This document shows, in pieces, positions 4,384 to 33,974 of a stretch of 64,000 nucleotides of DNA (positions within the stretch are counted from its first letter, which is position 1; each line of letters opens with the position of its first letter). The notes below the pieces were generated by a model that was not told the origin of the DNA, searched no databases, and saw only the letters and a list, made by a program, of their open reading frames with translations. Location: assembly GCA_964016885.1 (NCBI GenBank), contig OZ024761.1, forward strand, positions 23,746,001-23,810,000, in the 5' to 3' direction. The translations under genes and the position numbers were made by a program. The stretch comes from Eledone cirrhosa (taxonomy: Eukaryota).

Positions 4384-5879
4384 AATTCTACTAAGTCAAA
4401 TAGGCATACTTATGGCTAAAGTTTTCTTTCTTTTTCTAAAAAAAAAAACGGAAAGACAGCGAGACAACACGATATATTCCGAGTGTTATGTCGCCGTCTT
4501 TCCGTTTCTATATAAATATAATAGGATATATAGCCATTGAAGAACTACTAGTATTTTCTACATATATACATGCCAATAAATATACTTATTTCAAGATGCT
4601 AACATATATATTATATACAAATCTGTTAGGTGTATATATGGTCGGTGCGTAGACAATTAAACCGGCAACCGAACCAAGCTTGCTTAGTGAGGAGGGTGAT
4701 ATTTGGACACCCTGCGGGATAAATACAAGACCCGACAAAGGGCAGAGTCAACGACCACCCAAATAGTACTTCTTTTTTTTACCTGGGAGTGATAGGCCCC
4801 CCCGCCCCCCCGTTGTTGTCACAACACCTCGGGTAGTGTTTTCGATGATCAGAGAGTGGGATTAAAAATCTTCAAAGCACAGGAATTACTTGTTCAGGAT
4901 CTGTTACAAGCTCGTGTGACTGGCCGTAGCCTAAAAGTGCACCATTTACTCTAATCTGAGAAGCGATAGCAATGCTCTTAGCAGAGTTTGCAGCCATCAT
5001 ATGTGTAAATATATATATGTCTGTGTGTGTGTATGTATATATACAGGTGGTGCTATTAAGTTAGACATGGGCTGGGCCCATCCTGCGCTAGCATGAAATG
5101 GCTAGGTCATGTGATGCGGAAGGGTGAAAGTGACTGGGTAAAAGGAGTAGGGAGCCCATGATGAATATTGTGTACAGAAATGGAATGAGATGGCTAGGTC
5201 ATGTGTTGACCTAATCTTATTTACATTTGTTTGTTAGTGCCTATTAAATACAGATATGACAATAAGATTGAAGATGGGGCGAGACAATAAGATCTATGTG
5301 TGGTACCAGTGAGGTAGCCATTCTTAGCTAAACATAGCTGCTATATCTTCCTCAAATTACACTCTACCCTATATTCTCTTAAAATGTAAGAGACATATTT
5401 CTAGATACACAATGTCAGAAATACTAAGTAACACGAGATGGTCACGGTTGGAAGAATATCTATGAACGAAAGGTTTGCTTGGTTTAGGCTGACATGTCAT
5501 GACAGACACCGGGAAATTAATTTCTGTCTGAAAGATACTACATCCAGCTAACCCCGCCCCACTATAAAAAAAAGATGTAATAAATGTTATCAAAGACCCT
5601 AAATAAGTAACGTATAAAGATAAGGGTAAAAATAAACTAACATCTAAAAAACTTATGTTGTATTCGAGACAATCGAGGTAGCTGGGTTACTAACAACAAA
5701 GTTCCTATCATGGTTGACGACTTGCCTTACTAAAGTATTACACAATGTTTATAAAGGTCCTTAGTTTCGCTATCACAATATCTTGGCTTACCTTCACAAT
5801 ATTTAGAAGGAAATGCACGTTTTATTATTTTTTGTGTCTTTGTGAGCATATATATATATATATTATTTTGCTTATAATT

Positions 5880-6450
5880 TAGTTAAAAATTCAGCTAACT
5901 TTTGTTGAAAATACAGTCAATTTTTGGTGAATATTCACTCGAATCTTATTGAAAATTTAGCCAATTTTTGCTTAAAATACATCCAATTTTTGGTAGAAAA
6001 TTCAGCCAATTTCTGTTCAAAATTTAGTCACTATTTGTTCAAAATACAGCCACCTTCTGTTGAGAGTTTAGTCAATTTTTATTGAAAATTGAGCCTATTT
6101 TTGCTGAAAATACATCCAATTTTTGGTAGAAAATTCAGCCAATTTCTGTTCAAAATTTAGTCACTATTTGTTCAAAATACAGCCACCTCCTGTTGAGAGT
6201 TTAGTCAATTTTTATTGAAAGTTGAGCCAATTTTTGCTGAAAATACAGCCAATTTTTGGTGAAAAATCAGCTAATTTTTGTTCAAAATACAGCCAACTTT
6301 TGTTGAAAGTTTAGTCAGTTTTTATTGAAATTTTAGCCAATTTTTGCTGAAAATACAGCCAATTTTTGGTGAAAAATCAGCTAATTTTTGTTCAAAATTT
6401 AGTCAATCTTTGTTCAAAATACAGGCAACTTTTGTTGAAAGTTTAGTCAA
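5880..6450. repeat. ~22-bp degenerate A/T-tract satellite (unit 1; also ~9515-9930, 12200-12815 and equivalents, 31910-32400)
   Basis: Consensus like AATTTTTGTTCAAAATTTAGTC, with higher-order internal duplications. Confidence 0.9.
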
Positions 6451-6825
6451 ATTAATTTCTACAGATTTTTTTTGTTCCATTTTTAGATCATATTCATGAA
6501 AGAAATGAATTATGTATGTTGAAATATCCGGTATGATATAGAAATAAAGATTAGTTTGGGACTTACTATTTTGTTGTTTTTATCCATAACATGTACTAAT
6601 TTCGGATTTTCACTGTTGAAAGATTTCATAGTGATAGGGTCTGTCTACATGGTCAGACCCTTTGCGACCAACAAGATGAGCATTCTCGTTGAAAGATTTC
6701 CCATATATTTCACAGTGAAAATGTTTTTAGCTATAGAAATAAAGATTAGTTTGGGACTTACTATTTTGTTGTTTTTATCCATAACATGTACTACCTTTCG
6801 GATTTTCACTGTTGAAAGATTTCAT

Positions 6826-7760
6826 AGTGATAGGGTCTGTCTACATGGTCAGTCCCTTTGCGACCAACAAGATGAGCATTCTCATTGAAAGATATTCCAC
6901 AGTGATAGGGTCTCTCTACATGGTCAGTCCCTTTGCGACCAACAAGATGAGCATTCTCATTGAAAGATATTCCACAGTGATAGGGTCTCTCTACATGGTC
7001 AGTTCCTTTGCGACCAACAAGATGAGCATTCTCATTGAAAGATATTCCACTGTGATAGGGTCTCTCTACATGGTCAGTTCCTTTGCGACCAACAAGATGA
7101 GCATTCTCATTGAAAGATATTCCACTGTGATAGGGTCTTTCTACATGGTCAGTTCCTTTGCGACCAACAAGATGAGCATTCTCATTGAAAGATATTCCAC
7201 TGTGATAGGGTCTCTCTACATGGTCAGTTCCTTTGCGACCAACAAGATGAGCATTCTCATTGAAAGATATTCCACAGTGATAGGGTCTTTCTACATGGTC
7301 AGTTCCTTTGCGACCAACAAGATGAGCATTCTCATTGAAAGATATTCCACTGTGATAGGGTCTCTCTACATGATCAGTTCCTTTGCGACCAACAAGATGA
7401 GCATTCTCATTGAAAGATATTCCACAGTGATAGGGTCTTTCTACATGGTCAGTTCCTTTGCGACCAACAAGATGAGAATTCTCATTGAAAGATATTCCAC
7501 AGTGATAGGGTCTTTCTACATGGTCAGTTCCTTTGCGACCAACAAGATGAGCATTCTCGTTCAAAGATATTCCACAGTAATAGGGTCTTTCTACATGGCC
7601 AGTTCCTTTGCGACCAACAAGATGAGCATTCTCGTTGAAATATATTCCAGTGATAGGGTCTTTCTACATGGTCAGTTCCTTTGCGACCAACAAGATGAGC
7701 ATTCTCGTTGAAAGATTTCCCATATATTTCACAGTGAAAATGTTTTTAGCTAGTGAGATT
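6826..7760 (-). pseudogene. C2H2 zinc-finger-derived 75-bp minisatellite, unit 1 (12 repeats)
   Basis: Minus strand reads (CGISFNENAHLVGRKGTDHVERPYH)n; the leader reads *KHFHCEIYGKSF, a decayed EKPFHCEICGKSF. Confidence 0.75.
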
Positions 7761-7789
7761 TCTATTGTGAACAATTAAATATTCTCAGT

Positions 7790-8005
7790 AGTAGAAGGGT
7801 CGTGGGGATAGAGTCCTTAAGCATGCCTTCCATCCGGTCCTGTCCGAAGCAACCGTTTCCAACTGGTCCAGCTGCATCCACAAGTGATACCACAAGTGAT
7901 ACCTGCTATAGGGCTCCTCTGTCAGTTGGTTTTGCTCGTAAAATCTGTCCATTGAGACATTCTAACCACTGATCAATAACATCGAAAGATCCTGAGTGGA
8001 GTAAA
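7790..8005 (-). mobile_element. RTE-clade LINE 3' fragment (present in each B segment)
   Basis: Reverse complement matches the RTE-like fragment at ~41580-41850 (GTGGTTAGAATGTCTCAA, AAAACCAAC, CAGTTGGA). Confidence 0.7.
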
Positions 8006-8225
8006 CCTCAGATAAATTTTATTAAACAATTTTTCAATTAGATTATATAATGTTTGCAATAATAAAAATAAAATAACAAAAAGCAATGGAAATCGGAGGA
8101 AGGAGCAACTGATTGTACACTGCGGCCTGGGCACTATGTTTTAGCTGTACCCTGTGATGGACAGCCACTCCACTTCACAAGGCTTCTTCCGCATGTCGAA
8201 TGAACATACATTATATATATATATA

Positions 8226-8851
8226 CGAGCAGTGGTACCCGGCGTTGCACGGGATAAGGTATTTTGGAACGCGGGCCGCCAACAGACCTAATCGTGGAAA
8301 AACTGCATGCCTGGACAATATGTAAAGAAAATAAACCGAATACTCTAATGACTGGATAATCTTTAAGATTTTCCTCGATGAAGCAGGAAAGATGCAGGTT
8401 TTCACCTAATGGGGTTCAAGAAAATAATTTTTTCTTTATGTGCATAATATGCCTTGAAATTTCTGGAAAGTCGGCTAGACGTAACGCCTCAAAAAAGCCC
8501 CAAAAAGCTGAAAAAAATGAAGTTATTCACCTAATGCGGGCTCTAGGCCATAAAAAAGTTGGATTTTCTTTGCTCACGGTATGAAGAAGAGACTGACTAA
8601 TACATAGTTACAATTTCAAGGAAATCAGTCTGACGTAACGCCTCAAAAAAACCCCTAAAAACCTGAAAAAAACGCAGTTTTTCACCTAATGCGGGCCTTA
8701 GGGGATCAAAAGGTTGAATTTCTTCATGTACATAGCACTCCCTGAAACATAAGTAATACACATGTAAAGTTTGAAAAAAGTTGGTAGGGTACTTTTCGAG
8801 TTTTAGGGATTCAAATTCACAGACAGTCATACTCAGTTTTATATATAGAGA
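8226..8851 (-). mobile_element. Non-autonomous Helitron (other array copies 10914-11554, 14103-14747, 17488-18132, 20723-21367, 23958-24602, 27193-27837, 30578-31222)
   Basis: 5' TC..TATATATAAAACTGAG, subterminal hairpin CCCGTGCAACGCCGGG, 3' end CTCG instead of CTAG. Same family as 42265-42728. Confidence 0.8.
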
Positions 8852-8861
8852 TATGTGTGTA

Positions 8862-8914
<53 letters not shown>

Positions 8915-10107
8915 GTATATATGATGGCTGGCCCCTCGTTATCGAGTATGGCAATTGCACGATATACCATTATTAATTAATTCTATCGTGCAATGCCTGA
9001 AAATGTAAGAGACACATTACAGAATGTATTTCTAGATACACAATGTCAGAAATACTAAGTAACACGAGATGGTCACGGTTGGAAGAATATCTATGGACGA
9101 AAGGTTTGCTTGGTTTAGGCTGACATGTCATGACAGACACCGAGAAATTAATTTCTGTCTGAAAGATACTAGATCCAGCTAACCCCTCCCCACTATAAAG
9201 AAAAGATGAAATAAATGTTATCAAAGACCCTAAATAAGTAACGTATAAAGATAAGGGTAAAAATAAACTAACATCTAAATAACTTATGTTGTATTCGAGA
9301 CAATCGGGGTAGCTTGGTTACTAACAACAAAGTTCCTATCATGGTTGGCGACTTGCCTTACTAAAGTATTACACAATGTTTATAAAGGTCCTTAGTTTCG
9401 CTATCACCTGTAACAATATCTTGGCTTACCTAAACAATATTTAGAAGGAAATGCACGTTTTATTATTTTTTGTGTCTTTGTGAGCATATATATATTTTTT
9501 TTTGCTTATAATTTTTGTTGAAAATATAGTCAATTTTTGGTGAATATTCACTCGAACTTTATTGAAAATTTAACAAATTTTTGCTTAAAATACATCCAAT
9601 TTTTGGTAGAAAATCCAGCCAATTTCTGTTCAAAATTTAGTCACTATTTGTTCAAAATACAGCCAACTTCTGTTGAAAGTTTAGTCAATTTTTATTGAAA
9701 ATTTAGCCAATTTTTGCTGAAAATACAGCCAATTTTTGGTGAAAAATCAGCTAACTTTTGTTCAAAATTTAGTCAATCTTTGTTCAAAATACAGCCAACT
9801 TTTGTTGAAAGTTTAGTCAATTTTTATTGAAAATTTAGCTAATCTTTGCTGAAAATACAGCCAACTTTTGTTAAAAACTTAGTCAATTTTTGTTCAAAAT
9901 ACAGGCAATCTTTGCTGAAAATTTAGTCAAATTAATTTCTACAGATTTTTTGTTCCATTTGTAGATCATATTCATGAAAGAAATGAATTATGTATGTTGA
10001 AATATCCGGTTTGATATAGAAATAAAGATTAGTTTGGGACTTACTATTTTGTTGTTTTTATCCATAACATGTACTACCTTTCGGATTTTCACTGTTGAAA
10101 GATTTTA

Positions 10108-10440
10108 TAGTGATAGGGTCTGTCTACATGGTCAGTTCCTTTGCGACCAACAAGATGAGCATTCTCATTGAAAGATATTCCACAGTGATAGGGTCTCTCT
10201 ACATGGTCAGTTCCTTTGCGACCAACAAGATGAGCATTCTCGTTGAAAGATATTCCACAGTGATAGGGTCTTTCTACATGGTCAGTTCCTTTGCGACCAA
10301 CAAGATGAGCATTCTCATTGAAAGATATTCCACAGTGATAGGGTCTCTCTACATGGTCAGTTCCTTTGCGACCAACAAGATGAGCATTCTCGTTGAAAGA
10401 TTTCCCATATATTTCACAGTGAAAATGTTTTTAGCTAATG
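10108..10440 (-). repeat. ZNF-derived 75-bp minisatellite, unit 2 (4 repeats)
   Basis: Four GCGACCAACAAG cores at 75-bp spacing. Confidence 0.9.
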
Positions 10441-12993
10441 AGATTTCTTTTGTGAACAATTAAATATTCTCAGTAGTAGAAGGGTCGTGGGGATAGAGTC
10501 CTTACGCATGCCTTCCATCCGGTTCTGTCCGAAACAACCGTTTCCAACTGGTTCAGCTGCATCCACAAGTGATACCAGCTGAGCTGAGGTCATGGATGTT
10601 AGCCAAACATCTTGCTATAGGGCTCCTCTGTCACTTGGTTTTGCTCGTAAAATCTGTCCATTGAGACATTCTAACCACTGATCCATAACATCGAAAGATC
10701 CTGAGTGGAGTAAACCTCAGATAAATTTTATTAAACAATTTTTCAATTAGATTATATGTTTGCAATAATAAAAATAAAATAACAAAAAGCAATGGAAATC
10801 GGAGGAAGGAGCAACTGATTGTACACTGCGGCCTGGGCACTATGTTTTAGCTGTACCCTGTGATGGACAGCCACTCCACTTCACAGCTCGAATGTACATA
10901 CATTATATATATACGAGCAGTGGTACCCGGCGTTGCACGGGATAAGGTATTTTGGAACCCGGGCCGCCAACAGACCTAATCGTGGAAAAACTGCATGCCT
11001 GGACAATATGTAAAGAAAATAAACCGAATACTTTGATGGCTGGATAATCTTTAAGATTTTCCTCGATGAAGCAGGAAAGGTGCAGGTTTTCACCTAATGC
11101 GGGCCCTAGGGGTTCATGAAAATAATAATTTTTTTATGTGCATAATATGCCTTGAAATTTCTGGAAAATCGGCTAGACGTAACGCCTCAAAAAAGCCCTA
11201 AAAAGCTGAAAAAAATGAAGTTATTCACCTAATGCGGGCCCTAGGCCATAAAAAAGTTGGATTTTCTTTGCTCACGGTATGAAGAAGAGACTGACTAATA
11301 CATAGTTACAATTTCAAGGAAATCAGTCTGACGTAACGCCTCAAAAACCCCCTAAAAACCTGAAAAAAACGCAGTTTTTCACCTAATGCGGGCCTTAGGG
11401 GATCAAAAGGTTGAATTTTTTTATGTATATAAAACTCCCTGAAGCATAAGTAATACACATGTAAAGTTTGAAAAAAGTTGGTAGGATACTTTTCGAGTTT
11501 TAGGGATTCAAATTCACAGACACAGACAGTCATCCTCAGTTTTATATATATAGATATGTGTATATATATGTATGCATATATATATATATATATATACATA
11601 TATATATGTATATATGATGGCTGGCCCCTCGTTATCGAGTATGGCAATTGCACGATATACCATTATTAATTAATTCTATCGTGCAATGCCTGAAAATGTA
11701 AGAGACACATTACAGAATGTATTTCTAGATACACAATGTCAGAAATACTAAGTAACACGAGATGGTCACGGTTGGAAGAATATCTATGGACGAAAGGTTT
11801 GCTTGGTTTAGGCTGACATGTCATGACAGACACCGAGAAATTAATTTCTGTCTGAAAGATACTAGATCCAGCTAACCCCTCCCCACTATAAAGAAAAGAT
11901 GAAATAAATGTTATCAAAGACCCTAAATAAGTAACGTATAAAGATAAGGGTAAAAATAAACTAACATCTAAATAACTTATGTTGTATTCGAGACAATCGG
12001 GGTAGCTTGGTTACTAACAACAAAGTTCCTATCATGGTTGACGACTTGCCTTACTAAAGTATTACACAATGTTTATAAAGGTCCTTAGTTTCGCTATCAC
12101 CTGTGACAATATCTTGGCTTACCTGAACAATATTTAGAAGGAAATGCACGTTTTATTATTTTTTGTGTCTTTGTGAGCATATATACATATATATTTTTTT
12201 TTGTTGAAAATTCAGCTAACTTTTGTTGAAAATATAGTCAATTTTTGGTGAATATTCACTCGAATTTTATTGAAAATTTAGCCAATTTTTCCTGAAAATA
12301 CATCCAATTTTTGGTGGAATATTCAGCCAATTTCTGTTCAAAATTTAGTCACTATTTGTTCAAAATACATCCAACTTTTGTTGAAAGTTTAGTCAATTTT
12401 TATTGAAAATTTAGCCAATTTTTGCTGAAAATACAGCCAATTTTTGGTGAAAAATCAGCCAATTTTTGTTCCAAATTTAGTCAATTTTTGTTCAAAATAA
12501 ATCCAACTTTTGTTGAAAGTTTAGTCAATTTTTATTGAAAATTTAGCCAATTTTTGCTGAAAATACAGCCAATTTTTGGTGAAAAATCAGCCAATTTTTG
12601 GTGAAAAATCAGCCAATTTTTGTTCCAAATTTAGTCAATTTTTGTTCAAAATAAATCCAACTTTTGTTGAAAGTTTAGTCAATTTTTATTGAAAATTTAG
12701 CCAATTTTTGCTGAAAATACAGCCAATTTTTGGTGAAAAATCAGCCAATTTTTGTTTCAAATTTAGTCAATTTTTGTTCAAAATACAGCCAACTTTTGTT
12801 GAAAGTTTAGTCAAATTAATTTCTACAGATTTTTTTGTTCCATTTGTAGATCATATTGATGGAAGAAATAAATTATGTATGTTGAAATATCCGATTATGA
12901 TATAGAAATAAAAATTAATTTGGGACTTACTATTTTGTTGTTTTTATCCATAACATGTACTACCTTTCGGATTTTCACTGTTGAAAGATTTTA

Positions 12994-13625
12994 TAGTGAT
13001 AGGGTCTGTCTACATGGTCAGTTCCTTTGCGACCAACAAGATGAGCATTCTCATTGAAAGATATTCCACAGTGATAGGGTCTTTCTACATGGTCAGTTCC
13101 TTTGCGACCAACAAGATGAGCATTCTCGTTGAAAGATATTCCACAGTGATAGGGTCTTTCTACATGGTCAGTTCCTTTGCGACCAACAAGATGAGCATTC
13201 TCGTTGAAAGATATTCCACAGTGATAGGGTCTTTCTACATGCTCAGTTCCTTTGCGACCAACAAGATGAGCATTCTCGTTGAAAGATATTCCACAGTGAT
13301 AGGGTCTTTCTACATGGTCAGTTCCTTTGCGACCAACAAGATGAGCATTCTCGTTGAAAGATATTCCACAGTGATAGGGTCTTTCTACATGGTCAGTTCC
13401 TTTGCGACCAACAAGATGAGCATTCTCGTTGAAAGATATTCCACAGTGATAGGGTCTTTCTACATGGTCAGTTCCTTTGCGACCAACAAGATGAGCATTC
13501 TCGTTGAAAGATATTCCACAGTGATAGGGTCTTTCTACATGGTCAGTTCCTTTGCGACCAACAAGATGAGCATTCTCGTTGAAAGATTTCCCATATATTT
13601 CACAGTGAAAATGTTTTTAGCTAGT
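12994..13625 (-). repeat. ZNF-derived 75-bp minisatellite, unit 3 (8 repeats)
   Basis: Eight 25-aa repeats in the overlapping ORF. Confidence 0.9.
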
Positions 13626-14770
13626 GAGATTTCTATTGTGAACAATTAAATATTCTCAGTAGTAGAAGGGTCGTGGGGATAGAGTCCTTACGCATGCCTT
13701 CCATCCGGTCCTGTCCGAAGCAACCGTTTCCAACTGGTCCAGCTGCATCCACAAGTGATACCAGCTGAGCTGAGCTCATGGATGTTAGCCAAACATCCTG
13801 CTATAGGGCTCCTCTGTCACTTGGTTTTGCTCGTAAAATCTGTCCATTGAGACATTCTAACCACTGATCAATAACATCGAAAGATCCTGAGTGGAGTAAA
13901 CCTCAGATAAATTTTATTAAACAATTTTTCAATTAGATTATATAATGTTTTCAATAATAAAAATAAAATAGCAAAAAGCAATGGAAATCGGAGGAAGGAG
14001 CAACTGATTGTACACTGCGGCCTGGGCACTATGTTTTAGCTGTACCCTGTGATGGACAGCCACTCCACTTCACAGGTCGAATGTACATACATTATATATA
14101 TACGAGCAGTGGTACCCGGCGTTGCACGGGATAAGGTATTTTGGAACGCGGGCCGCCAACAGACTTAATCGTGGAAAAACTGCATGCCTGGACAATATGT
14201 AAAGAAAATAAACCGAATACTTTGATGGCTGGATAATCTTTAAGATTTTCTTCGATGAAGCAGGAAAAATGCAGGTTTTCACTTAATGCGGGCCCTAGGT
14301 GATCAACAAAATGAATTTTTTTTTCATGTGCATAATATGCCGTGAAATTTCTGGAAAATCGGCTGGACGTAACGCCTCAAAAAAGTCCTAAAAAGCTGAA
14401 AAAAATGAAGTTATTCACCTAATGCGGGCTCTAGGTCATAAAAAAGTTGGATTTTCTTTGCTCACGGTATGAAGAAGAGACTGACTAATACATAGTTACA
14501 ATTTCAAGGAAATCAGTCTGACGTAACGCCTCAAAAAACCCCTAAAAACCTGAAAAAAACGCAGTTTTTCACCTAATGCGGGCCTTAGGGGATCAAAAGG
14601 TTGAATTTTTTTAATGTATATAGCACTCCCTGAAACATAAGTAATACACATGTAAAGTTTGAAAAAAGTTGGTAGGGTACTTTTCGAGTTTTAGGGATTC
14701 AAATTCACAGACACACAGACAGTCATCCTTAGTTTTATATATATAGATATGTGTATATATATATGTATGC

Positions 14771-14837
<67 letters not shown>

Positions 14838-16228
14838 TATATGTATATATGATGGCTGGCCCCTCGTTATCGAGTATGGCAATTGCACGATATACCATTA
14901 TTAATTAATTCTATCGTGCAATGCCTGAAAATGTAAGAGACACATTACAGAATGTATTTCTAGATACACAATGTCAGAAATACTAAGTAACACGAGATGG
15001 TCACGGTTGGAAGAATATCTATGGACGAAAGGTTTGCTTGGTTTAGGCTGACATGTCATGACAGACACCGAGAAATTAATTTCTGTCTGAAAGATACTAG
15101 ATCCAGCTAACCCCTCCCCACTATAAAGAAAAGATGAAATAAATGTTATCAAAGACCCTAAATAAGTAACGTATAAAGATAAGGGTAAAAATAAACTAAC
15201 ATCTAAATAACTTATGTTGTATTCGAGACAATCGGGGTAGCTTGGTTACTAACAACAAAGTTCCTATCATGGTTGACGACTTGCCTTACTAAAGTATTAC
15301 ACAATGTTTATAAAGGTCCTTAGTTTCGCTATCACCTGTGACAATATCTTGGCTTACCTGAACAATATTTAGAAGGAAATGCACGTTTTATTATTTTTTG
15401 TGTCTTTGTGAGCATATATACATATATATTTTTTTTTGTTGAAAATTCAGCTAACTTTTGTTGAAAATATAGTCAATTTTTGGTGAATATTCACTCGAAT
15501 TTTATTGAAAATTTAGCCAATTTTTCCTGAAAATACATCCAATTTTTGGTGGAATATTCAGCCAATTTCTGTTCAAAATTTAGTCACTATTTGTTCAAAA
15601 TACATCCAACTTTTGTTGAAAGTTTAGTCAATTTTTATTGAAAATTTAGCCAATTTTTGCTGAAAATACAGCCAATTTTTGGTGAAAAATCAGCCAATTT
15701 TTGTTCCAAATTTAGTCAATTTTTGTTCAAAATAAATCCAACTTTTGTTGAAAGTTTAGTCAATTTTTATTGAAAATTTAGCCAATTTTTGCTGAAAATA
15801 CAGCCAATTTTTGGTGAAAAATCAGCCAATTTTTGGTGAAAAATCAGCCAATTTTTGTTCCAAATTTAGTCAATTTTTGTTCAAAATAAATCCAACTTTT
15901 GTTGAAAGTTTAGTCAATTTTTATTGAAAATTTAGCCAATTTTTGCTGAAAATACAGCCAATTTTTGGTGAAAAATCAGCCAATTTTTGTTTCAAATTTA
16001 GTCAATTTTTGTTCAAAATACAGCCAACTTTTGTTGAAAGTTTAGTCAAATTAATTTCTACAGATTTTTTTGTTCCATTTGTAGATCATATTGATGGAAG
16101 AAATAAATTATGTATGTTGAAATATCCGATTATGATATAGAAATAAAAATTAATTTGGGACTTACTATTTTGTTGTTTTTATCCATAACATGTACTACCT
16201 TTCGGATTTTCACTGTTGAAAGATTTTA

Positions 16229-17010
16229 TAGTGATAGGGTCTGTCTACATGGTCAGTTCCTTTGCGACCAACAAGATGAGCATTCTCATTGAAAGATATT
16301 CCACAGTGATAGGGTCTTTCTACATGGTCAGTTCCTTTGCGACCAACAAGATGAGCATTCTCGTTGAAAGATATTCCACAGTGATAGGGTCTTTCTACAT
16401 GGTCAGTTCCTTTGCGACCAACAAGATGAGCATTCTCGTTGAAAGATATTCCACAGTGATAGGGTCTTTCTACATGCTCAGTTCCTTTGCGACCAACAAG
16501 ATGAGCATTCTCGTTGAAAGATATTCCACAGTGATAGGGTCTTTCTACATGGTCAGTTCCTTTGCGACCAACAAGATGAGCATTCTCGTTGAAAGATATT
16601 CCACAGTGATAGGGTCTTTCTACATGGTCAGTTCCTTTGCGACCAACAAGATGAGCATTCTCGTTGAAAGATATTCCACAGTGATAGGGTCTTTCTACAT
16701 GGTCAGTTCCTTTGCGACCAACAAGATGAGCATTCTCGTTGAAAGATATTCCACAGTGATAGGGTCTTTCTACATGGTCAGTTCCTTTGCGACCAACAAG
16801 ATGAGCATTCTCGTTGAAAGATATTCCACAGTGATAGGGTCTTTCTACATGGTCAGTTCCTTTGCGACCAACAAGATGAGCATTCTCGTTGAAAGATATT
16901 CCACAGTGATAGGGTCTTTCTACATGGTCAGTTCCTTTGCGACCAACAAGATGAGCATTCTCGTTGAAAGATTTCCCATATATTTCACAGTGAAAATGTT
17001 TTTAGCTAGT
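16229..17010 (-). repeat. ZNF-derived 75-bp minisatellite, unit 4 (10 repeats)
   Basis: Ten repeats; the unit is 150 bp longer than unit 3. Confidence 0.9.
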
Positions 17011-18155
17011 GAGATTTCTATTGTGAACAATTAAATATTCTCAGTAGTAGAAGGGTCGTGGGGATAGAGTCCTTACGCATGCCTTCCATCCGGTCCTGTC
17101 CGAAGCAACCGTTTCCAACTGGTCCAGCTGCATCCACAAGTGATACCAGCTGAGCTGAGCTCATGGATGTTAGCCAAACATCCTGCTATAGGGCTCCTCT
17201 GTCACTTGGTTTTGCTCGTAAAATCTGTCCATTGAGACATTCTAACCACTGATCAATAACATCGAAAGATCCTGAGTGGAGTAAACCTCAGATAAATTTT
17301 ATTAAACAATTTTTCAATTAGATTATATAATGTTTTCAATAATAAAAATAAAATAGCAAAAAGCAATGGAAATCGGAGGAAGGAGCAACTGATTGTACAC
17401 TGCGGCCTGGGCACTATGTTTTAGCTGTACCCTGTGATGGACAGCCACTCCACTTCACAGGTCGAATGTACATACATTATATATATACGAGCAGTGGTAC
17501 CCGGCGTTGCACGGGATAAGGTATTTTGGAACGCGGGCCGCCAACAGACTTAATCGTGGAAAAACTGCATGCCTGGACAATATGTAAAGAAAATAAACCG
17601 AATACTTTGATGGCTGGATAATCTTTAAGATTTTCTTCGATGAAGCAGGAAAAATGCAGGTTTTCACTTAATGCGGGCCCTAGGTGATCAACAAAATGAA
17701 TTTTTTTTTCATGTGCATAATATGCCGTGAAATTTCTGGAAAATCGGCTGGACGTAACGCCTCAAAAAAGTCCTAAAAAGCTGAAAAAAATGAAGTTATT
17801 CACCTAATGCGGGCTCTAGGTCATAAAAAAGTTGGATTTTCTTTGCTCACGGTATGAAGAAGAGACTGACTAATACATAGTTACAATTTCAAGGAAATCA
17901 GTCTGACGTAACGCCTCAAAAAACCCCTAAAAACCTGAAAAAAACGCAGTTTTTCACCTAATGCGGGCCTTAGGGGATCAAAAGGTTGAATTTTTTTAAT
18001 GTATATAGCACTCCCTGAAACATAAGTAATACACATGTAAAGTTTGAAAAAAGTTGGTAGGGTACTTTTCGAGTTTTAGGGATTCAAATTCACAGACACA
18101 CAGACAGTCATCCTTAGTTTTATATATATAGATATGTGTATATATATATGTATGC

Positions 18156-18222
<67 letters not shown>

Positions 18223-19613
18223 TATATGTATATATGATGGCTGGCCCCTCGTTATCGAGTATGGCAATTGCACGATATACCATTATTAATTAATTCTATC
18301 GTGCAATGCCTGAAAATGTAAGAGACACATTACAGAATGTATTTCTAGATACACAATGTCAGAAATACTAAGTAACACGAGATGGTCACGGTTGGAAGAA
18401 TATCTATGGACGAAAGGTTTGCTTGGTTTAGGCTGACATGTCATGACAGACACCGAGAAATTAATTTCTGTCTGAAAGATACTAGATCCAGCTAACCCCT
18501 CCCCACTATAAAGAAAAGATGAAATAAATGTTATCAAAGACCCTAAATAAGTAACGTATAAAGATAAGGGTAAAAATAAACTAACATCTAAATAACTTAT
18601 GTTGTATTCGAGACAATCGGGGTAGCTTGGTTACTAACAACAAAGTTCCTATCATGGTTGACGACTTGCCTTACTAAAGTATTACACAATGTTTATAAAG
18701 GTCCTTAGTTTCGCTATCACCTGTGACAATATCTTGGCTTACCTGAACAATATTTAGAAGGAAATGCACGTTTTATTATTTTTTGTGTCTTTGTGAGCAT
18801 ATATACATATATATTTTTTTTTGTTGAAAATTCAGCTAACTTTTGTTGAAAATATAGTCAATTTTTGGTGAATATTCACTCGAATTTTATTGAAAATTTA
18901 GCCAATTTTTCCTGAAAATACATCCAATTTTTGGTGGAATATTCAGCCAATTTCTGTTCAAAATTTAGTCACTATTTGTTCAAAATACATCCAACTTTTG
19001 TTGAAAGTTTAGTCAATTTTTATTGAAAATTTAGCCAATTTTTGCTGAAAATACAGCCAATTTTTGGTGAAAAATCAGCCAATTTTTGTTCCAAATTTAG
19101 TCAATTTTTGTTCAAAATAAATCCAACTTTTGTTGAAAGTTTAGTCAATTTTTATTGAAAATTTAGCCAATTTTTGCTGAAAATACAGCCAATTTTTGGT
19201 GAAAAATCAGCCAATTTTTGGTGAAAAATCAGCCAATTTTTGTTCCAAATTTAGTCAATTTTTGTTCAAAATAAATCCAACTTTTGTTGAAAGTTTAGTC
19301 AATTTTTATTGAAAATTTAGCCAATTTTTGCTGAAAATACAGCCAATTTTTGGTGAAAAATCAGCCAATTTTTGTTTCAAATTTAGTCAATTTTTGTTCA
19401 AAATACAGCCAACTTTTGTTGAAAGTTTAGTCAAATTAATTTCTACAGATTTTTTTGTTCCATTTGTAGATCATATTGATGGAAGAAATAAATTATGTAT
19501 GTTGAAATATCCGATTATGATATAGAAATAAAAATTAATTTGGGACTTACTATTTTGTTGTTTTTATCCATAACATGTACTACCTTTCGGATTTTCACTG
19601 TTGAAAGATTTTA

Positions 19614-20245
19614 TAGTGATAGGGTCTGTCTACATGGTCAGTTCCTTTGCGACCAACAAGATGAGCATTCTCATTGAAAGATATTCCACAGTGATAGGGT
19701 CTTTCTACATGGTCAGTTCCTTTGCGACCAACAAGATGAGCATTCTCGTTGAAAGATATTCCACAGTGATAGGGTCTTTCTACATGGTCAGTTCCTTTGC
19801 GACCAACAAGATGAGCATTCTCGTTGAAAGATATTCCACAGTGATAGGGTCTTTCTACATGCTCAGTTCCTTTGCGACCAACAAGATGAGCATTCTCGTT
19901 GAAAGATATTCCACAGTGATAGGGTCTTTCTACATGGTCAGTTCCTTTGCGACCAACAAGATGAGCATTCTCGTTGAAAGATATTCCACAGTGATAGGGT
20001 CTTTCTACATGGTCAGTTCCTTTGCGACCAACAAGATGAGCATTCTCGTTGAAAGATATTCCACAGTGATAGGGTCTTTCTACATGGTCAGTTCCTTTGC
20101 GACCAACAAGATGAGCATTCTCGTTGAAAGATATTCCACAGTGATAGGGTCTTTCTACATGGTCAGTTCCTTTGCGACCAACAAGATGAGCATTCTCGTT
20201 GAAAGATTTCCCATATATTTCACAGTGAAAATGTTTTTAGCTAGT
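19614..20245 (-). repeat. ZNF-derived 75-bp minisatellite, unit 5 (8 repeats)
   Basis: Eight repeats. Confidence 0.9.
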
Positions 20246-21390
20246 GAGATTTCTATTGTGAACAATTAAATATTCTCAGTAGTAGAAGGGTCGTGGGGAT
20301 AGAGTCCTTACGCATGCCTTCCATCCGGTCCTGTCCGAAGCAACCGTTTCCAACTGGTCCAGCTGCATCCACAAGTGATACCAGCTGAGCTGAGCTCATG
20401 GATGTTAGCCAAACATCCTGCTATAGGGCTCCTCTGTCACTTGGTTTTGCTCGTAAAATCTGTCCATTGAGACATTCTAACCACTGATCAATAACATCGA
20501 AAGATCCTGAGTGGAGTAAACCTCAGATAAATTTTATTAAACAATTTTTCAATTAGATTATATAATGTTTTCAATAATAAAAATAAAATAGCAAAAAGCA
20601 ATGGAAATCGGAGGAAGGAGCAACTGATTGTACACTGCGGCCTGGGCACTATGTTTTAGCTGTACCCTGTGATGGACAGCCACTCCACTTCACAGGTCGA
20701 ATGTACATACATTATATATATACGAGCAGTGGTACCCGGCGTTGCACGGGATAAGGTATTTTGGAACGCGGGCCGCCAACAGACTTAATCGTGGAAAAAC
20801 TGCATGCCTGGACAATATGTAAAGAAAATAAACCGAATACTTTGATGGCTGGATAATCTTTAAGATTTTCTTCGATGAAGCAGGAAAAATGCAGGTTTTC
20901 ACTTAATGCGGGCCCTAGGTGATCAACAAAATGAATTTTTTTTTCATGTGCATAATATGCCGTGAAATTTCTGGAAAATCGGCTGGACGTAACGCCTCAA
21001 AAAAGTCCTAAAAAGCTGAAAAAAATGAAGTTATTCACCTAATGCGGGCTCTAGGTCATAAAAAAGTTGGATTTTCTTTGCTCACGGTATGAAGAAGAGA
21101 CTGACTAATACATAGTTACAATTTCAAGGAAATCAGTCTGACGTAACGCCTCAAAAAACCCCTAAAAACCTGAAAAAAACGCAGTTTTTCACCTAATGCG
21201 GGCCTTAGGGGATCAAAAGGTTGAATTTTTTTAATGTATATAGCACTCCCTGAAACATAAGTAATACACATGTAAAGTTTGAAAAAAGTTGGTAGGGTAC
21301 TTTTCGAGTTTTAGGGATTCAAATTCACAGACACACAGACAGTCATCCTTAGTTTTATATATATAGATATGTGTATATATATATGTATGC

Positions 21391-21457
<67 letters not shown>

Positions 21458-22848
21458 TATATGTATATATGATGGCTGGCCCCTCGTTATCGAGTATGGC
21501 AATTGCACGATATACCATTATTAATTAATTCTATCGTGCAATGCCTGAAAATGTAAGAGACACATTACAGAATGTATTTCTAGATACACAATGTCAGAAA
21601 TACTAAGTAACACGAGATGGTCACGGTTGGAAGAATATCTATGGACGAAAGGTTTGCTTGGTTTAGGCTGACATGTCATGACAGACACCGAGAAATTAAT
21701 TTCTGTCTGAAAGATACTAGATCCAGCTAACCCCTCCCCACTATAAAGAAAAGATGAAATAAATGTTATCAAAGACCCTAAATAAGTAACGTATAAAGAT
21801 AAGGGTAAAAATAAACTAACATCTAAATAACTTATGTTGTATTCGAGACAATCGGGGTAGCTTGGTTACTAACAACAAAGTTCCTATCATGGTTGACGAC
21901 TTGCCTTACTAAAGTATTACACAATGTTTATAAAGGTCCTTAGTTTCGCTATCACCTGTGACAATATCTTGGCTTACCTGAACAATATTTAGAAGGAAAT
22001 GCACGTTTTATTATTTTTTGTGTCTTTGTGAGCATATATACATATATATTTTTTTTTGTTGAAAATTCAGCTAACTTTTGTTGAAAATATAGTCAATTTT
22101 TGGTGAATATTCACTCGAATTTTATTGAAAATTTAGCCAATTTTTCCTGAAAATACATCCAATTTTTGGTGGAATATTCAGCCAATTTCTGTTCAAAATT
22201 TAGTCACTATTTGTTCAAAATACATCCAACTTTTGTTGAAAGTTTAGTCAATTTTTATTGAAAATTTAGCCAATTTTTGCTGAAAATACAGCCAATTTTT
22301 GGTGAAAAATCAGCCAATTTTTGTTCCAAATTTAGTCAATTTTTGTTCAAAATAAATCCAACTTTTGTTGAAAGTTTAGTCAATTTTTATTGAAAATTTA
22401 GCCAATTTTTGCTGAAAATACAGCCAATTTTTGGTGAAAAATCAGCCAATTTTTGGTGAAAAATCAGCCAATTTTTGTTCCAAATTTAGTCAATTTTTGT
22501 TCAAAATAAATCCAACTTTTGTTGAAAGTTTAGTCAATTTTTATTGAAAATTTAGCCAATTTTTGCTGAAAATACAGCCAATTTTTGGTGAAAAATCAGC
22601 CAATTTTTGTTTCAAATTTAGTCAATTTTTGTTCAAAATACAGCCAACTTTTGTTGAAAGTTTAGTCAAATTAATTTCTACAGATTTTTTTGTTCCATTT
22701 GTAGATCATATTGATGGAAGAAATAAATTATGTATGTTGAAATATCCGATTATGATATAGAAATAAAAATTAATTTGGGACTTACTATTTTGTTGTTTTT
22801 ATCCATAACATGTACTACCTTTCGGATTTTCACTGTTGAAAGATTTTA

Positions 22849-23480
22849 TAGTGATAGGGTCTGTCTACATGGTCAGTTCCTTTGCGACCAACAAGATGAG
22901 CATTCTCATTGAAAGATATTCCACAGTGATAGGGTCTTTCTACATGGTCAGTTCCTTTGCGACCAACAAGATGAGCATTCTCGTTGAAAGATATTCCACA
23001 GTGATAGGGTCTTTCTACATGGTCAGTTCCTTTGCGACCAACAAGATGAGCATTCTCGTTGAAAGATATTCCACAGTGATAGGGTCTTTCTACATGGTCA
23101 GTTCCTTTGCGACCAACAAGATGAGCATTCTCGTTGAAAGATATTCCACAGTGATAGGGTCTTTCTACATGGTCAGTTCCTTTGCGACCAACAAGATGAG
23201 CATTCTCGTTGAAAGATATTCCACAGTGATAGGGTCTTTCTACATGGTCAGTTCCTTTGCGACCAACAAGATGAGCATTCTCGTTGAAAGATATTCCACA
23301 GTGATAGGGTCTTTCTACATGGTCAGTTCCTTTGCGACCAACAAGATGAGCATTCTCGTTGAAAGATATTCCACAGTGATAGGGTCTTTCTACATGGTCA
23401 GTTCCTTTGCGACCAACAAGATGAGCATTCTCGTTGAAAGATTTCCCATATATTTCACAGTGAAAATGTTTTTAGCTAGT
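22849..23480 (-). repeat. ZNF-derived 75-bp minisatellite, unit 6 (8 repeats)
   Basis: Eight repeats; lacks the ATGCTC variant in repeat 4. Confidence 0.9.
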
Positions 23481-24625
23481 GAGATTTCTATTGTGAACAA
23501 TTAAATATTCTCAGTAGTAGAAGGGTCGTGGGGATAGAGTCCTTACGCATGCCTTCCATCCGGTCCTGTCCGAAGCAACCGTTTCCAACTGGTCCAGCTG
23601 CATCCACAAGTGATACCAGCTGAGCTGAGCTCATGGATGTTAGCCAAACATCCTGCTATAGGGCTCCTCTGTCACTTGGTTTTGCTCGTAAAATCTGTCC
23701 ATTGAGACATTCTAACCACTGATCAATAACATCGAAAGATCCTGAGTGGAGTAAACCTCAGATAAATTTTATTAAACAATTTTTCAATTAGATTATATAA
23801 TGTTTTCAATAATAAAAATAAAATAGCAAAAAGCAATGGAAATCGGAGGAAGGAGCAACTGATTGTACACTGCGGCCTGGGCACTATGTTTTAGCTGTAC
23901 CCTGTGATGGACAGCCACTCCACTTCACAGGTCGAATGTACATACATTATATATATACGAGCAGTGGTACCCGGCGTTGCACGGGATAAGGTATTTTGGA
24001 ACGCGGGCCGCCAACAGACTTAATCGTGGAAAAACTGCATGCCTGGACAATATGTAAAGAAAATAAACCGAATACTTTGATGGCTGGATAATCTTTAAGA
24101 TTTTCTTCGATGAAGCAGGAAAAATGCAGGTTTTCACTTAATGCGGGCCCTAGGTGATCAACAAAATGAATTTTTTTTTCATGTGCATAATATGCCGTGA
24201 AATTTCTGGAAAATCGGCTGGACGTAACGCCTCAAAAAAGTCCTAAAAAGCTGAAAAAAATGAAGTTATTCACCTAATGCGGGCTCTAGGTCATAAAAAA
24301 GTTGGATTTTCTTTGCTCACGGTATGAAGAAGAGACTGACTAATACATAGTTACAATTTCAAGGAAATCAGTCTGACGTAACGCCTCAAAAAACCCCTAA
24401 AAACCTGAAAAAAACGCAGTTTTTCACCTAATGCGGGCCTTAGGGGATCAAAAGGTTGAATTTTTTTAATGTATATAGCACTCCCTGAAACATAAGTAAT
24501 ACACATGTAAAGTTTGAAAAAAGTTGGTAGGGTACTTTTCGAGTTTTAGGGATTCAAATTCACAGACACACAGACAGTCATCCTTAGTTTTATATATATA
24601 GATATGTGTATATATATATGTATGC

Positions 24626-24692
<67 letters not shown>

Positions 24693-26083
24693 TATATGTA
24701 TATATGATGGCTGGCCCCTCGTTATCGAGTATGGCAATTGCACGATATACCATTATTAATTAATTCTATCGTGCAATGCCTGAAAATGTAAGAGACACAT
24801 TACAGAATGTATTTCTAGATACACAATGTCAGAAATACTAAGTAACACGAGATGGTCACGGTTGGAAGAATATCTATGGACGAAAGGTTTGCTTGGTTTA
24901 GGCTGACATGTCATGACAGACACCGAGAAATTAATTTCTGTCTGAAAGATACTAGATCCAGCTAACCCCTCCCCACTATAAAGAAAAGATGAAATAAATG
25001 TTATCAAAGACCCTAAATAAGTAACGTATAAAGATAAGGGTAAAAATAAACTAACATCTAAATAACTTATGTTGTATTCGAGACAATCGGGGTAGCTTGG
25101 TTACTAACAACAAAGTTCCTATCATGGTTGACGACTTGCCTTACTAAAGTATTACACAATGTTTATAAAGGTCCTTAGTTTCGCTATCACCTGTGACAAT
25201 ATCTTGGCTTACCTGAACAATATTTAGAAGGAAATGCACGTTTTATTATTTTTTGTGTCTTTGTGAGCATATATACATATATATTTTTTTTTGTTGAAAA
25301 TTCAGCTAACTTTTGTTGAAAATATAGTCAATTTTTGGTGAATATTCACTCGAATTTTATTGAAAATTTAGCCAATTTTTCCTGAAAATACATCCAATTT
25401 TTGGTGGAATATTCAGCCAATTTCTGTTCAAAATTTAGTCACTATTTGTTCAAAATACATCCAACTTTTGTTGAAAGTTTAGTCAATTTTTATTGAAAAT
25501 TTAGCCAATTTTTGCTGAAAATACAGCCAATTTTTGGTGAAAAATCAGCCAATTTTTGTTCCAAATTTAGTCAATTTTTGTTCAAAATAAATCCAACTTT
25601 TGTTGAAAGTTTAGTCAATTTTTATTGAAAATTTAGCCAATTTTTGCTGAAAATACAGCCAATTTTTGGTGAAAAATCAGCCAATTTTTGGTGAAAAATC
25701 AGCCAATTTTTGTTCCAAATTTAGTCAATTTTTGTTCAAAATAAATCCAACTTTTGTTGAAAGTTTAGTCAATTTTTATTGAAAATTTAGCCAATTTTTG
25801 CTGAAAATACAGCCAATTTTTGGTGAAAAATCAGCCAATTTTTGTTTCAAATTTAGTCAATTTTTGTTCAAAATACAGCCAACTTTTGTTGAAAGTTTAG
25901 TCAAATTAATTTCTACAGATTTTTTTGTTCCATTTGTAGATCATATTGATGGAAGAAATAAATTATGTATGTTGAAATATCCGATTATGATATAGAAATA
26001 AAAATTAATTTGGGACTTACTATTTTGTTGTTTTTATCCATAACATGTACTACCTTTCGGATTTTCACTGTTGAAAGATTTTA

Positions 26084-26715
26084 TAGTGATAGGGTCTGTC
26101 TACATGGTCAGTTCCTTTGCGACCAACAAGATGAGCATTCTCATTGAAAGATATTCCACAGTGATAGGGTCTTTCTACATGGTCAGTTCCTTTGCGACCA
26201 ACAAGATGAGCATTCTCGTTGAAAGATATTCCACAGTGATAGGGTCTTTCTACATGGTCAGTTCCTTTGCGACCAACAAGATGAGCATTCTCGTTGAAAG
26301 ATATTCCACAGTGATAGGGTCTTTCTACATGCTCAGTTCCTTTGCGACCAACAAGATGAGCATTCTCGTTGAAAGATATTCCACAGTGATAGGGTCTTTC
26401 TACATGGTCAGTTCCTTTGCGACCAACAAGATGAGCATTCTCGTTGAAAGATATTCCACAGTGATAGGGTCTTTCTACATGGTCAGTTCCTTTGCGACCA
26501 ACAAGATGAGCATTCTCGTTGAAAGATATTCCACAGTGATAGGGTCTTTCTACATGGTCAGTTCCTTTGCGACCAACAAGATGAGCATTCTCGTTGAAAG
26601 ATATTCCACAGTGATAGGGTCTTTCTACATGGTCAGTTCCTTTGCGACCAACAAGATGAGCATTCTCGTTGAAAGATTTCCCATATATTTCACAGTGAAA
26701 ATGTTTTTAGCTAGT
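26084..26715 (-). repeat. ZNF-derived 75-bp minisatellite, unit 7 (8 repeats)
   Basis: Eight repeats. Confidence 0.9.
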
Positions 26716-27860
26716 GAGATTTCTATTGTGAACAATTAAATATTCTCAGTAGTAGAAGGGTCGTGGGGATAGAGTCCTTACGCATGCCTTCCATCCGGTC
26801 CTGTCCGAAGCAACCGTTTCCAACTGGTCCAGCTGCATCCACAAGTGATACCAGCTGAGCTGAGCTCATGGATGTTAGCCAAACATCCTGCTATAGGGCT
26901 CCTCTGTCACTTGGTTTTGCTCGTAAAATCTGTCCATTGAGACATTCTAACCACTGATCAATAACATCGAAAGATCCTGAGTGGAGTAAACCTCAGATAA
27001 ATTTTATTAAACAATTTTTCAATTAGATTATATAATGTTTTCAATAATAAAAATAAAATAGCAAAAAGCAATGGAAATCGGAGGAAGGAGCAACTGATTG
27101 TACACTGCGGCCTGGGCACTATGTTTTAGCTGTACCCTGTGATGGACAGCCACTCCACTTCACAGGTCGAATGTACATACATTATATATATACGAGCAGT
27201 GGTACCCGGCGTTGCACGGGATAAGGTATTTTGGAACGCGGGCCGCCAACAGACTTAATCGTGGAAAAACTGCATGCCTGGACAATATGTAAAGAAAATA
27301 AACCGAATACTTTGATGGCTGGATAATCTTTAAGATTTTCTTCGATGAAGCAGGAAAAATGCAGGTTTTCACTTAATGCGGGCCCTAGGTGATCAACAAA
27401 ATGAATTTTTTTTTCATGTGCATAATATGCCGTGAAATTTCTGGAAAATCGGCTGGACGTAACGCCTCAAAAAAGTCCTAAAAAGCTGAAAAAAATGAAG
27501 TTATTCACCTAATGCGGGCTCTAGGTCATAAAAAAGTTGGATTTTCTTTGCTCACGGTATGAAGAAGAGACTGACTAATACATAGTTACAATTTCAAGGA
27601 AATCAGTCTGACGTAACGCCTCAAAAAACCCCTAAAAACCTGAAAAAAACGCAGTTTTTCACCTAATGCGGGCCTTAGGGGATCAAAAGGTTGAATTTTT
27701 TTAATGTATATAGCACTCCCTGAAACATAAGTAATACACATGTAAAGTTTGAAAAAAGTTGGTAGGGTACTTTTCGAGTTTTAGGGATTCAAATTCACAG
27801 ACACACAGACAGTCATCCTTAGTTTTATATATATAGATATGTGTATATATATATGTATGC

Positions 27861-27927
<67 letters not shown>

Positions 27928-29318
27928 TATATGTATATATGATGGCTGGCCCCTCGTTATCGAGTATGGCAATTGCACGATATACCATTATTAATTAATT
28001 CTATCGTGCAATGCCTGAAAATGTAAGAGACACATTACAGAATGTATTTCTAGATACACAATGTCAGAAATACTAAGTAACACGAGATGGTCACGGTTGG
28101 AAGAATATCTATGGACGAAAGGTTTGCTTGGTTTAGGCTGACATGTCATGACAGACACCGAGAAATTAATTTCTGTCTGAAAGATACTAGATCCAGCTAA
28201 CCCCTCCCCACTATAAAGAAAAGATGAAATAAATGTTATCAAAGACCCTAAATAAGTAACGTATAAAGATAAGGGTAAAAATAAACTAACATCTAAATAA
28301 CTTATGTTGTATTCGAGACAATCGGGGTAGCTTGGTTACTAACAACAAAGTTCCTATCATGGTTGACGACTTGCCTTACTAAAGTATTACACAATGTTTA
28401 TAAAGGTCCTTAGTTTCGCTATCACCTGTGACAATATCTTGGCTTACCTGAACAATATTTAGAAGGAAATGCACGTTTTATTATTTTTTGTGTCTTTGTG
28501 AGCATATATACATATATATTTTTTTTTGTTGAAAATTCAGCTAACTTTTGTTGAAAATATAGTCAATTTTTGGTGAATATTCACTCGAATTTTATTGAAA
28601 ATTTAGCCAATTTTTCCTGAAAATACATCCAATTTTTGGTGGAATATTCAGCCAATTTCTGTTCAAAATTTAGTCACTATTTGTTCAAAATACATCCAAC
28701 TTTTGTTGAAAGTTTAGTCAATTTTTATTGAAAATTTAGCCAATTTTTGCTGAAAATACAGCCAATTTTTGGTGAAAAATCAGCCAATTTTTGTTCCAAA
28801 TTTAGTCAATTTTTGTTCAAAATAAATCCAACTTTTGTTGAAAGTTTAGTCAATTTTTATTGAAAATTTAGCCAATTTTTGCTGAAAATACAGCCAATTT
28901 TTGGTGAAAAATCAGCCAATTTTTGGTGAAAAATCAGCCAATTTTTGTTCCAAATTTAGTCAATTTTTGTTCAAAATAAATCCAACTTTTGTTGAAAGTT
29001 TAGTCAATTTTTATTGAAAATTTAGCCAATTTTTGCTGAAAATACAGCCAATTTTTGGTGAAAAATCAGCCAATTTTTGTTTCAAATTTAGTCAATTTTT
29101 GTTCAAAATACAGCCAACTTTTGTTGAAAGTTTAGTCAAATTAATTTCTACAGATTTTTTTGTTCCATTTGTAGATCATATTGATGGAAGAAATAAATTA
29201 TGTATGTTGAAATATCCGATTATGATATAGAAATAAAAATTAATTTGGGACTTACTATTTTGTTGTTTTTATCCATAACATGTACTACCTTTCGGATTTT
29301 CACTGTTGAAAGATTTTA

Positions 29319-31245: not shown

Positions 31246-31312
<67 letters not shown>

Positions 31313-33445: not shown

Positions 33446-33974
33446 TTTCTTTTGTGAACAATTAAATAATAGAAAACGGTCAAGTAGGGAAAGAACGGGA
33501 GTGGGGTCAGTTAACTGAATAATTTCTGACGGTTTTAGGGTCACATTAGTCAGAAAACATAAATTTCATATCCAACAGGTCTAAATGTAAAAGTTTGCCT
33601 AATGTTATTTACCTTTGTTTGTTAGTTTGTGTTAAACACAGATATGACAATAGGATTGAAGTTAGCCTCACTTCTTCAGCCACACTTTCGGATTTTCACC
33701 ATGTAAAGTTTTATTTACTATGATTGATTTTTAAAGTGATATTGAATAAATTTTCTTCTTCCTTGCCCACATATTCTCAAAAGGAGGAGGGTTGTGGGGG
33801 CATAGATTATTTATTTTCATGTTGTATGAGATAAAAGAAAACATTCATGTATATATATATATATCATCATCATCATCATCATCATAGATTAATGTCCATC
33901 TTCCATGACAGGTCCTATTTTAAGGCAAGTTGTGTCGGTTGACCATGCCTCGCTTCTTAACGCCAACCACATTG

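Follow-up and report, generated by a model that had tools for sequence, protein, structure and literature searches.

A 75-bp tandem repeat upstream of CHTF18 in Eledone cirrhosa and its probable origin from an octopus C2H2 zinc-finger gene

Upstream of CHTF18 in Eledone cirrhosa, a tandemly repeated 75-bp unit very probably represents a fragment of an octopus C2H2 zinc-finger gene, by its sequence now a non-coding, pseudogene-derived minisatellite nested within a longer tandem array. In the window (the whole stretch of DNA analysed, 64,000 nucleotides), 80 repeats are spread over 10 arrays of 1 to 12 repeats each; as in other minisatellites, the 75-bp units stand head to tail and their number varies among paralogous blocks. 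The array may be regarded as a readable case of octopus zinc-finger debris turning into tandem repeat DNA, the likely order of events being recorded in its leader fingers, units, terminal pieces and edges (Table 1).

Table 1. Coordinates of the macro-array and of the parts of its blocks (positions in the window; an asterisk denotes a stop).
Feature	Positions	Strand	Remarks
Tandem macro-array	5378..33468	.	period ~3.2 kb; nine segments A and eight spacers B
Mini-copy	6537..6732	-	leader, one body, terminal; lacks the 75-bp junction unit (collapsed, or never amplified)
Left-edge array	6812..7781	-	12 repeats; first unit 73 bp long; Cys->Ser in four units
75-bp array of block 2	10095..10405	-	4 repeats
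22-bp tandem repeat	12198..12814	.	132-bp higher-order period; carried by each block
Terminal partial unit	12975..12995	-	decayed copy of unit start; runs into TGA (12975-12977)
Seven 75-bp units	12996..13520	-	each a C2H2 finger minus three codons (likely Cys2-Gly-Lys); His1->Arg, His2->Asp
Leader finger	13521..13604	-	full 28 codons; Cys2->Tyr (TAT), His1->Arg, His2->Asp
Second half of preceding finger plus linker (LIVHNRNLTS*KHFH)	13605..13652	-	in-frame TAA 13617-13619
Spacer B of this copy	13653..14924	.	dispersed-repeat fragments, very high-copy element (~14100-14740), (TA)n run
75-bp array	16215..16976	-	10 repeats
75-bp array	19600..20211	-	8 repeats
75-bp array	22835..23446	-	8 repeats
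75-bp array	26070..26681	-	8 repeats
75-bp array	29305..30066	-	10 repeats
Right-edge array	32578..33468	-	11 repeats; four consecutive 73-bp frameshifting units; leader frameshifted after TG*KHFH

Likeness to octopus zinc fingers

In the copy at 12975-13652, the minus strand (12978-13616) translates as KHFH-CEIYGKSFNENAHLVGRKGTDHVERPYH, which includes the 28-codon leader finger, then as seven tandem units CGISFNENAHLVGRKGTDHVERPYH, and ends in YKIFQQ and a TGA. The TAA directly precedes the KHFH reading, with TG*K in the right-edge copy; upstream of it, in this copy, lies half a finger proper (13620-13652), and the zinc-finger likeness stops at the block junction (13652/13653). The minus-strand translation in the first-pass annotation proved correct on re-reading, and the leader with 28-residue spacing behind an in-frame stop, as well as a consensus unit with three His, one Cys and no stop, were seen as it had described them. 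The original sequence present amounts to only ~1.7 fingers. A single Cys is retained among the ligands of the unit, the ligand positions of the leader being occupied by C, Y, R and D, and the linker TGEKP has decayed to HVERP, with a period of 25 residues rather than 28. The TAA and the replacements Cys2->Tyr, His1->Arg and His2->Asp are common to all leaders, and the junction is 9 bp shorter in every unit.

A query of 76 residues, with the stop written as X, matched 2357 proteins at E<=0.001 in a library of 1.84 billion. Fingers of the form CxxC-12-HxxxH occur in all 150 of the matches listed (the best 150 of the 2357), and six matches looked up, chosen for finger likeness, were all Octopus proteins. 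The best single fingers are identical to the leader at 16 of 28 residues, and eight of the 28 leader residues are unseen in 27 octopus fingers. Among the same best 150 of 2357, the repeat reaches at most 46% identity to any protein, no near-identical protein is present, and the shortened junction [PK][YF]xCGxSF is absent; a word-index homologue search with the 213-residue frame against proteins of 117-373 residues yielded no candidate.

In the PDB a single stretch matched with an E-value of 2.2e-06. The matches belong to zinc-finger proteins and, in the displayed alignments, have a gap of three residues; those to PRDM9 reflect generic finger likeness. The annotation's assignment of His1->Arg and His2->Asp is backed by phmmer alignments to these PDB fingers and by 2172 fingers of the 150 matched proteins, a comparison in which both columns are His by the search pattern itself. 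Pfam is weak for each unit: zf-H2C2_2 gave E-values of 0.0015-0.009 (leader 0.005-0.009), below the cut-off, one unit alone gave no match, and zf-C2H2 attained a summed score of 39.3 bits, above the cut-off, yet no single stretch passes. Whole-protein Pfam matches to DUF6618, NUP210_Ig, Viral_Rep, Pho88 and others were rejected, being summed over repeats and below the cut-off on short queries. In the ESM Atlas the recognition value was 1234, under the mark of 2300, and the top clusters were unnamed (0.95), followed by C2H2 clusters at 0.92-0.93, which is a lead only. Together, the library, PDB and finger comparisons agree on the zinc-finger origin that the first-pass annotation had proposed, and by these comparisons the likeness of the unit to zinc fingers is greater than chance. 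Homology to tandem fingers is present, whereas four ligands, a 28-residue period with TGEKP and a frame that can be entered are absent.

The lost second Cys of the leader can be followed in DNA. Related loci (at least 85% identity over 13582-13612) almost throughout have C at 13594, that is, TGT on the minus strand and not TAT (codon 13593-13595). TGT accounts for 19098 of 19193 in depth at this position in the contigs of sequencing sample X1 (41 contigs), for 1577/1593 in X4, and for 60 of 63 and 74 of 74 reads in X5 and X6, respectively. The TAT of the leader is therefore a genomic change from the TGT of the family.

From a shortened junction to a macro-array

The position of the missing codons was sought by sliding a 9-base deletion along the leader and comparing the product with the unit and with the right-edge terminal piece. 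Loss of the Cys2(Tyr)-Gly-Lys codons fits best, with one mismatch to the unit and two to the terminal piece, against two and four for removal just after Cys1. On this comparison the deletion most likely removed Cys2-Gly-Lys and not the three codons after Cys1, and the unit reads Cys1-(Glu->Gly)-Ile---Ser-Phe. The gap placement C---GISF of the first-pass annotation is accordingly replaced by C-E-I-[Y-G-K]-S-F -> C-G-I---S-F, at one mismatch instead of two. The alternative that the TGTG at one Cys codon slipped against that at the other gives the same poorer fit (2 + 4 mismatches versus 1 + 2) and was demoted. Since leader and unit are the same in the finger body, with His1->Arg, His2->Asp and TGE->HVE in both, the ligand losses are likely to be older than the amplification, a relationship that later homogenisation could mimic. 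The terminal pieces represent the shortened junction in decayed form, and in the mini-copy the leader joins the terminal piece with no junction unit between them.

A sequence of four steps would account for the array. A fragment of an octopus C2H2 gene would have decayed, after which the start of the next finger would have lost Cys2-Gly-Lys, placing the ATCTTTCAAC stretches of neighbouring fingers 75 rather than 84 bp apart. Misalignment between two ATCTTTCAAC stretches could then have multiplied the finger body, the minisatellite growing, as is likely, by slippage or unequal crossing-over. Finally, the whole block would have been multiplied, very recently in the case of its six central copies, with drift at the edges.

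The zinc-finger fragment lies between the copies of an older direct repeat of ~110 bp (87-88%; 33598-33710 versus 32556-32588 plus 5210-5273). The second copy of this repeat is split by the 22-bp-repeat stretch, a hint of an insertion that preceded block multiplication. No finger likeness was seen upstream of 33468. Rolling-circle capture, with the spacer-B element as its agent, was considered and rejected: the block junctions lie off the ends of the element. The inverted-repeat search was dominated by (TA)n.

The blocks are laid out as A-B-A...A, each segment A consisting of a 530-bp stretch, the 22-bp repeat, the 75-bp array and the leader. The 22-bp minisatellite, found at 5878-6440 and in every later block, has a higher-order period of 132/133 bp and 19-28 copies per block. 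Relative to the reference block M4, blocks M3 and M5-M7 carry 0-1 substitutions and otherwise differ by whole multiples of 75 bp, as 150-bp insertions within the array; 33 and 76 mismatches separate the two left blocks from M4, and the edge copies stand at 92-95%.

Such near-identity over 3.2 kb, together with the fact that no matched sequence piece spans a whole block, would also fit the view that assembly error accounts for part of the six central blocks, so that the copy number would be wrong even though the unit and its origin are real. This has a small chance of being right, given that the central blocks hold either 8 or 10 units, that X1 contigs match the central-type leader and spacer B, that the unit recurs in the second sample, X4, and that the depth of the unit in X1 is ~12x that of spacer B against 10 expected from the window, depth being no copy number. 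Across the stop (13573-13774) the X1 contigs show 0 differences over 202 bases, and at 13799-14122 one over 324 bases; this difference, at 13870, is the letter of block 2, absent from the six central copies. Over 68 bases, 0 and 5 differences were counted in unit contigs of X4. In X5 and X6, RAD reads anchored at restriction sites cover spacer B and barely reach the leader. At 13693-14080 these reads contain variant letters at intermediate shares (e.g. at 13705, 13812 and 13969), some of them outside those of the window copies. The variants in spacer B suggest that other individuals carry additional haplotypes or paralogous copies.

Reading frame, editing and predicted structure

The finger frame is open over 213-263 codons in the six central arrays and block 2, and the distinct changes across the 80 repeats (66 shared bases) comprise 12 non-synonymous, 6 synonymous and 0 nonsense, one of the 12 (leader Lys/Ile) depending on gap placement. 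Both observations fit a protein-coding reading, in which the central copies would form a new His/Cys repeat protein, possibly metal-binding, that is entered through a non-AUG start, a cryptic acceptor or editing, and amplified for dosage. With 22-27% synonymous changes expected under neutrality, the 12:6 ratio gives P 0.19-0.36 and omega 0.60-0.76, at low power; the 70 full units alone give 10:6 and P 0.11-0.24, omega overall being about 0.5-0.76. The slight synonymous excess is the best support for coding; it is not significant, and the test is a weak one. With a ratio of 17:1 in the antisense frame, the finger frame has suffered the lesser damage, which is a further point for coding.

A way into the frame is harder to find. 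TAA stands before 10 of 10 leaders, and the nearest in-frame upstream ATG (13746-13748, in spacer B) sits behind a second stop, a TGA at about 13656-13658, 13 codons above the TAA. Met is absent from the finger frame in all three arrays checked. As acceptors, the 21 listed AG sites near two leaders and their first units all score -5.1 or less under a matrix built from 21 CHTF18 acceptors (leave-one-out 2.5 to 12.7), which were picked by pyrimidine content, so that the contrast is inflated; no acceptor-like AG lies downstream of the TAA around the two leaders examined. The first-pass annotation had the frame kept open, and this holds for the young arrays but fails at the older edges, where 73-bp spacings (5 of 70 in all) shift the frame, have been copied in tandem on the right and are joined there by a leader that is frameshifted after four codons. 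The three His and the following Cys are intact in 58 of 80 repeats, and three of the four candidate ligands are altered in some units (two His to Tyr, Cys to Ser).

Openness as such is readily obtained. When the unit, taken as circular, was shuffled 5000 times with its dinucleotides preserved, a particular frame was open in 23%, one or more frames in 83.5% and two or more in 44%; two are open in the real unit, namely the finger frame and the antisense in register with it. Because shuffled units mostly have an open frame, and the antisense is open as well, the open finger frame needs no selection; it results from a period that is a multiple of three and a founding unit without a stop.

The antisense frame itself, on the plus strand, could be taken to encode a Met-rich hydrophobic 25-residue repeat, being open over 231 codons with 17 Met and modelled by AlphaFold2 at a pLDDT of 89. 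The likelihood of this is negligible: the frame is open because the unit lacks TTA, CTA and TCA codons, 17 of the 18 changes in it are non-synonymous, the same 73-bp units break it, and its Pfam matches are weak, repeat-inflated and all below the cut-off.

AlphaFold2, run with no alignment, folds the finger frame as an all-beta repeat or beta-solenoid (mean pLDDT 77.4, pTM 0.77; five models 47-77), which at first sight counts for the coding reading. The antisense control scored higher (pLDDT 89.2, pTM 0.85), though nearly all changes there are non-synonymous, and for random perfect repeats AlphaFold2 is reported to produce beta-solenoids in more than 40% of cases, mostly with a pLDDT of at least 70 (PMC11795689). 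For these two reasons the model is no evidence of a protein and was set aside as such. VIA-align finds likenesses between it and numerous unrelated beta-helices (best Z 15.5, at rmsd 3.2, 200 aligned and 5% identity; range 3-12%), and Foldseek gave no match to the finger-frame model at E<=0.001. With neither start nor acceptor, broken frames at the edges and ligands replaced in some units, the new His/Cys protein that the first-pass annotation had entertained would be most improbable and was not retained, whereas its leading judgement, most likely a pseudogene, is upheld by the TAA, the frameshifts, the lost ligands and, at low power, changes that do not differ from the neutral expectation.

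A-to-I editing deserves separate mention. Messenger RNA editing in coleoids is described as extensive and as covering repeats, and edited sites in non-coding RNA as mostly overlapping repeats (PMC9068888). An A>G change would turn the leader TAT into TGT (Cys), and two would turn the TAA into TGG (Trp), which favours an edited entry into the frame. The first-pass suggestion that the leader codon might be edited to Cys is thus right in its arithmetic, but no finger results: A>G offers no route to His from the codons now at His1 (CGC) and His2 (GAC), and editing therefore cannot rebuild the finger. A further model, in which a dead finger was recast by the 9-bp deletion and amplification as a His/Cys protein with a predicted beta-solenoid fold, released by A-to-I editing of the two stops after an AUG in spacer B, would be extremely unlikely. 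If true, an editing-gated protein of this kind would make a striking case of gene birth, in which octopus RNA editing activates a gene derived from a pseudogene.

The array might also be non-coding and nevertheless transcribed, as a regulatory or small-RNA source, for example one directed against zinc-finger mRNAs, or act as heterochromatin between two divergent promoters. This reading draws on the ~30 leader bases that match many related loci (13582-13612), on the location of the block 4-32 kb upstream of the CHTF18 start codon and on the overlap of edited non-coding sites with repeats (PMC9068888). It is very unlikely in view of the Rfam search at gathering threshold (0 matches in the 64-kb window), the distance of the amplified body from intact octopus fingers and a repeat number that varies so widely from array to array. 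For the pseudogene-derived minisatellite, which is the preferred reading, a caution follows: with frames on two strands, summed Pfam scores and AlphaFold2 models, such arrays can inflate cephalopod zinc-finger counts and mimic genes.

Related systems and genomic surroundings

Macrosatellites and nested tandem repeats have homogenised centres and diverged edges, and units on the kilobase scale that contain minisatellites and repeat fragments. The present array differs from them in having nine copies in the window and an inner unit that can be traced to a protein-coding exon.

The C2H2 family is greatly expanded in coleoids (PMC9068888), and its expansion in octopuses is also treated in PMC12513265 and PMC10547256. 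Tandem C2H2 (Krueppel-type) octopus genes such as XP_052833736.1 (O. bimaculoides), CAI9743915.1 (O. vulgaris) and XP_029652431.1 (O. sinensis) have fingers of the type HC[DE]ICGKSF..N.HL..HKR.HTGE[KR]PYH, which share no more than the above 16 of 28 residues with the leader. They keep the 28-residue period, TGEKP and four ligands, whereas the array has lost three ligands, carries a stop in front and holds less than two fingers of original sequence.

The arrays of PRDM9 and PRDM7 resemble the present one as finger-coding DNA in the form of a homogenised minisatellite with variable unit number, and PRDM7 is described as having kept its repeats, disruptive mutations included (PMC4874674). In PRDM9 the units measure 84 bp and are functional, whereas the unit here has 75 bp, was likely dead before it multiplied and, in a test of low power, bears no significant sign of selection. 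Among molluscs, HINE elements (non-autonomous Helentrons), as in Crassostrea gigas, combine short tandem arrays with a high-copy element (PMC7492417). In a HINE the array sits between a left and a right module, with subterminal inverted repeats and a palindrome at the 3' end. Spacer B likewise holds a very high-copy element ending in a short CAGA-type run, but the 75-bp array is not part of that element, and the junctions 13652/13653 and 14924/14925 are off its ends. At the level of titles and the opening lines of abstracts no report of a cephalopod zinc-finger-derived minisatellite was found.

Downstream of the array, CHTF18 occupies the plus strand from 37454 to 63823 in about 22 coding exons (tblastn with three octopod proteins), its 3' end lying beyond the window; for one exon, identity is 92% with Octopus vulgaris and 89% with O. 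bimaculoides. An intronic position of the array in CHTF18 was rejected, the first coding exon being at 37454; a non-coding exon may still lie further upstream. On the other side, a relatively GC-rich stretch (~4050-4500, minus strand) ends at a GTAAGT donor-like site near 4050 and may be a first exon pointing away from the array; the ORF at 4118-4540 (plus strand) has no Pfam match.

The high-copy element of spacer B (~14100-14740) recurs in inverted orientation at 42219-42747. It is bounded by TA-rich runs, reaches a depth of at least 1e5 in X1 and collects tens of thousands of RAD reads at a GCATGC site; its ends look like those of non-autonomous rolling-circle elements. A decayed stretch at ~34400-35330, with an ORF at 34981-35322, looks like what we take to be the remains of a LINE reverse transcriptase. 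The introns of CHTF18 contain minisatellites of their own, at 44018-44453 (30 bp), 55205-55741 (24 bp) and 60888-61502 (48 bp), the first two of which give open frames of 100-325 codons, so that in-frame repeats readily mimic genes in this region.
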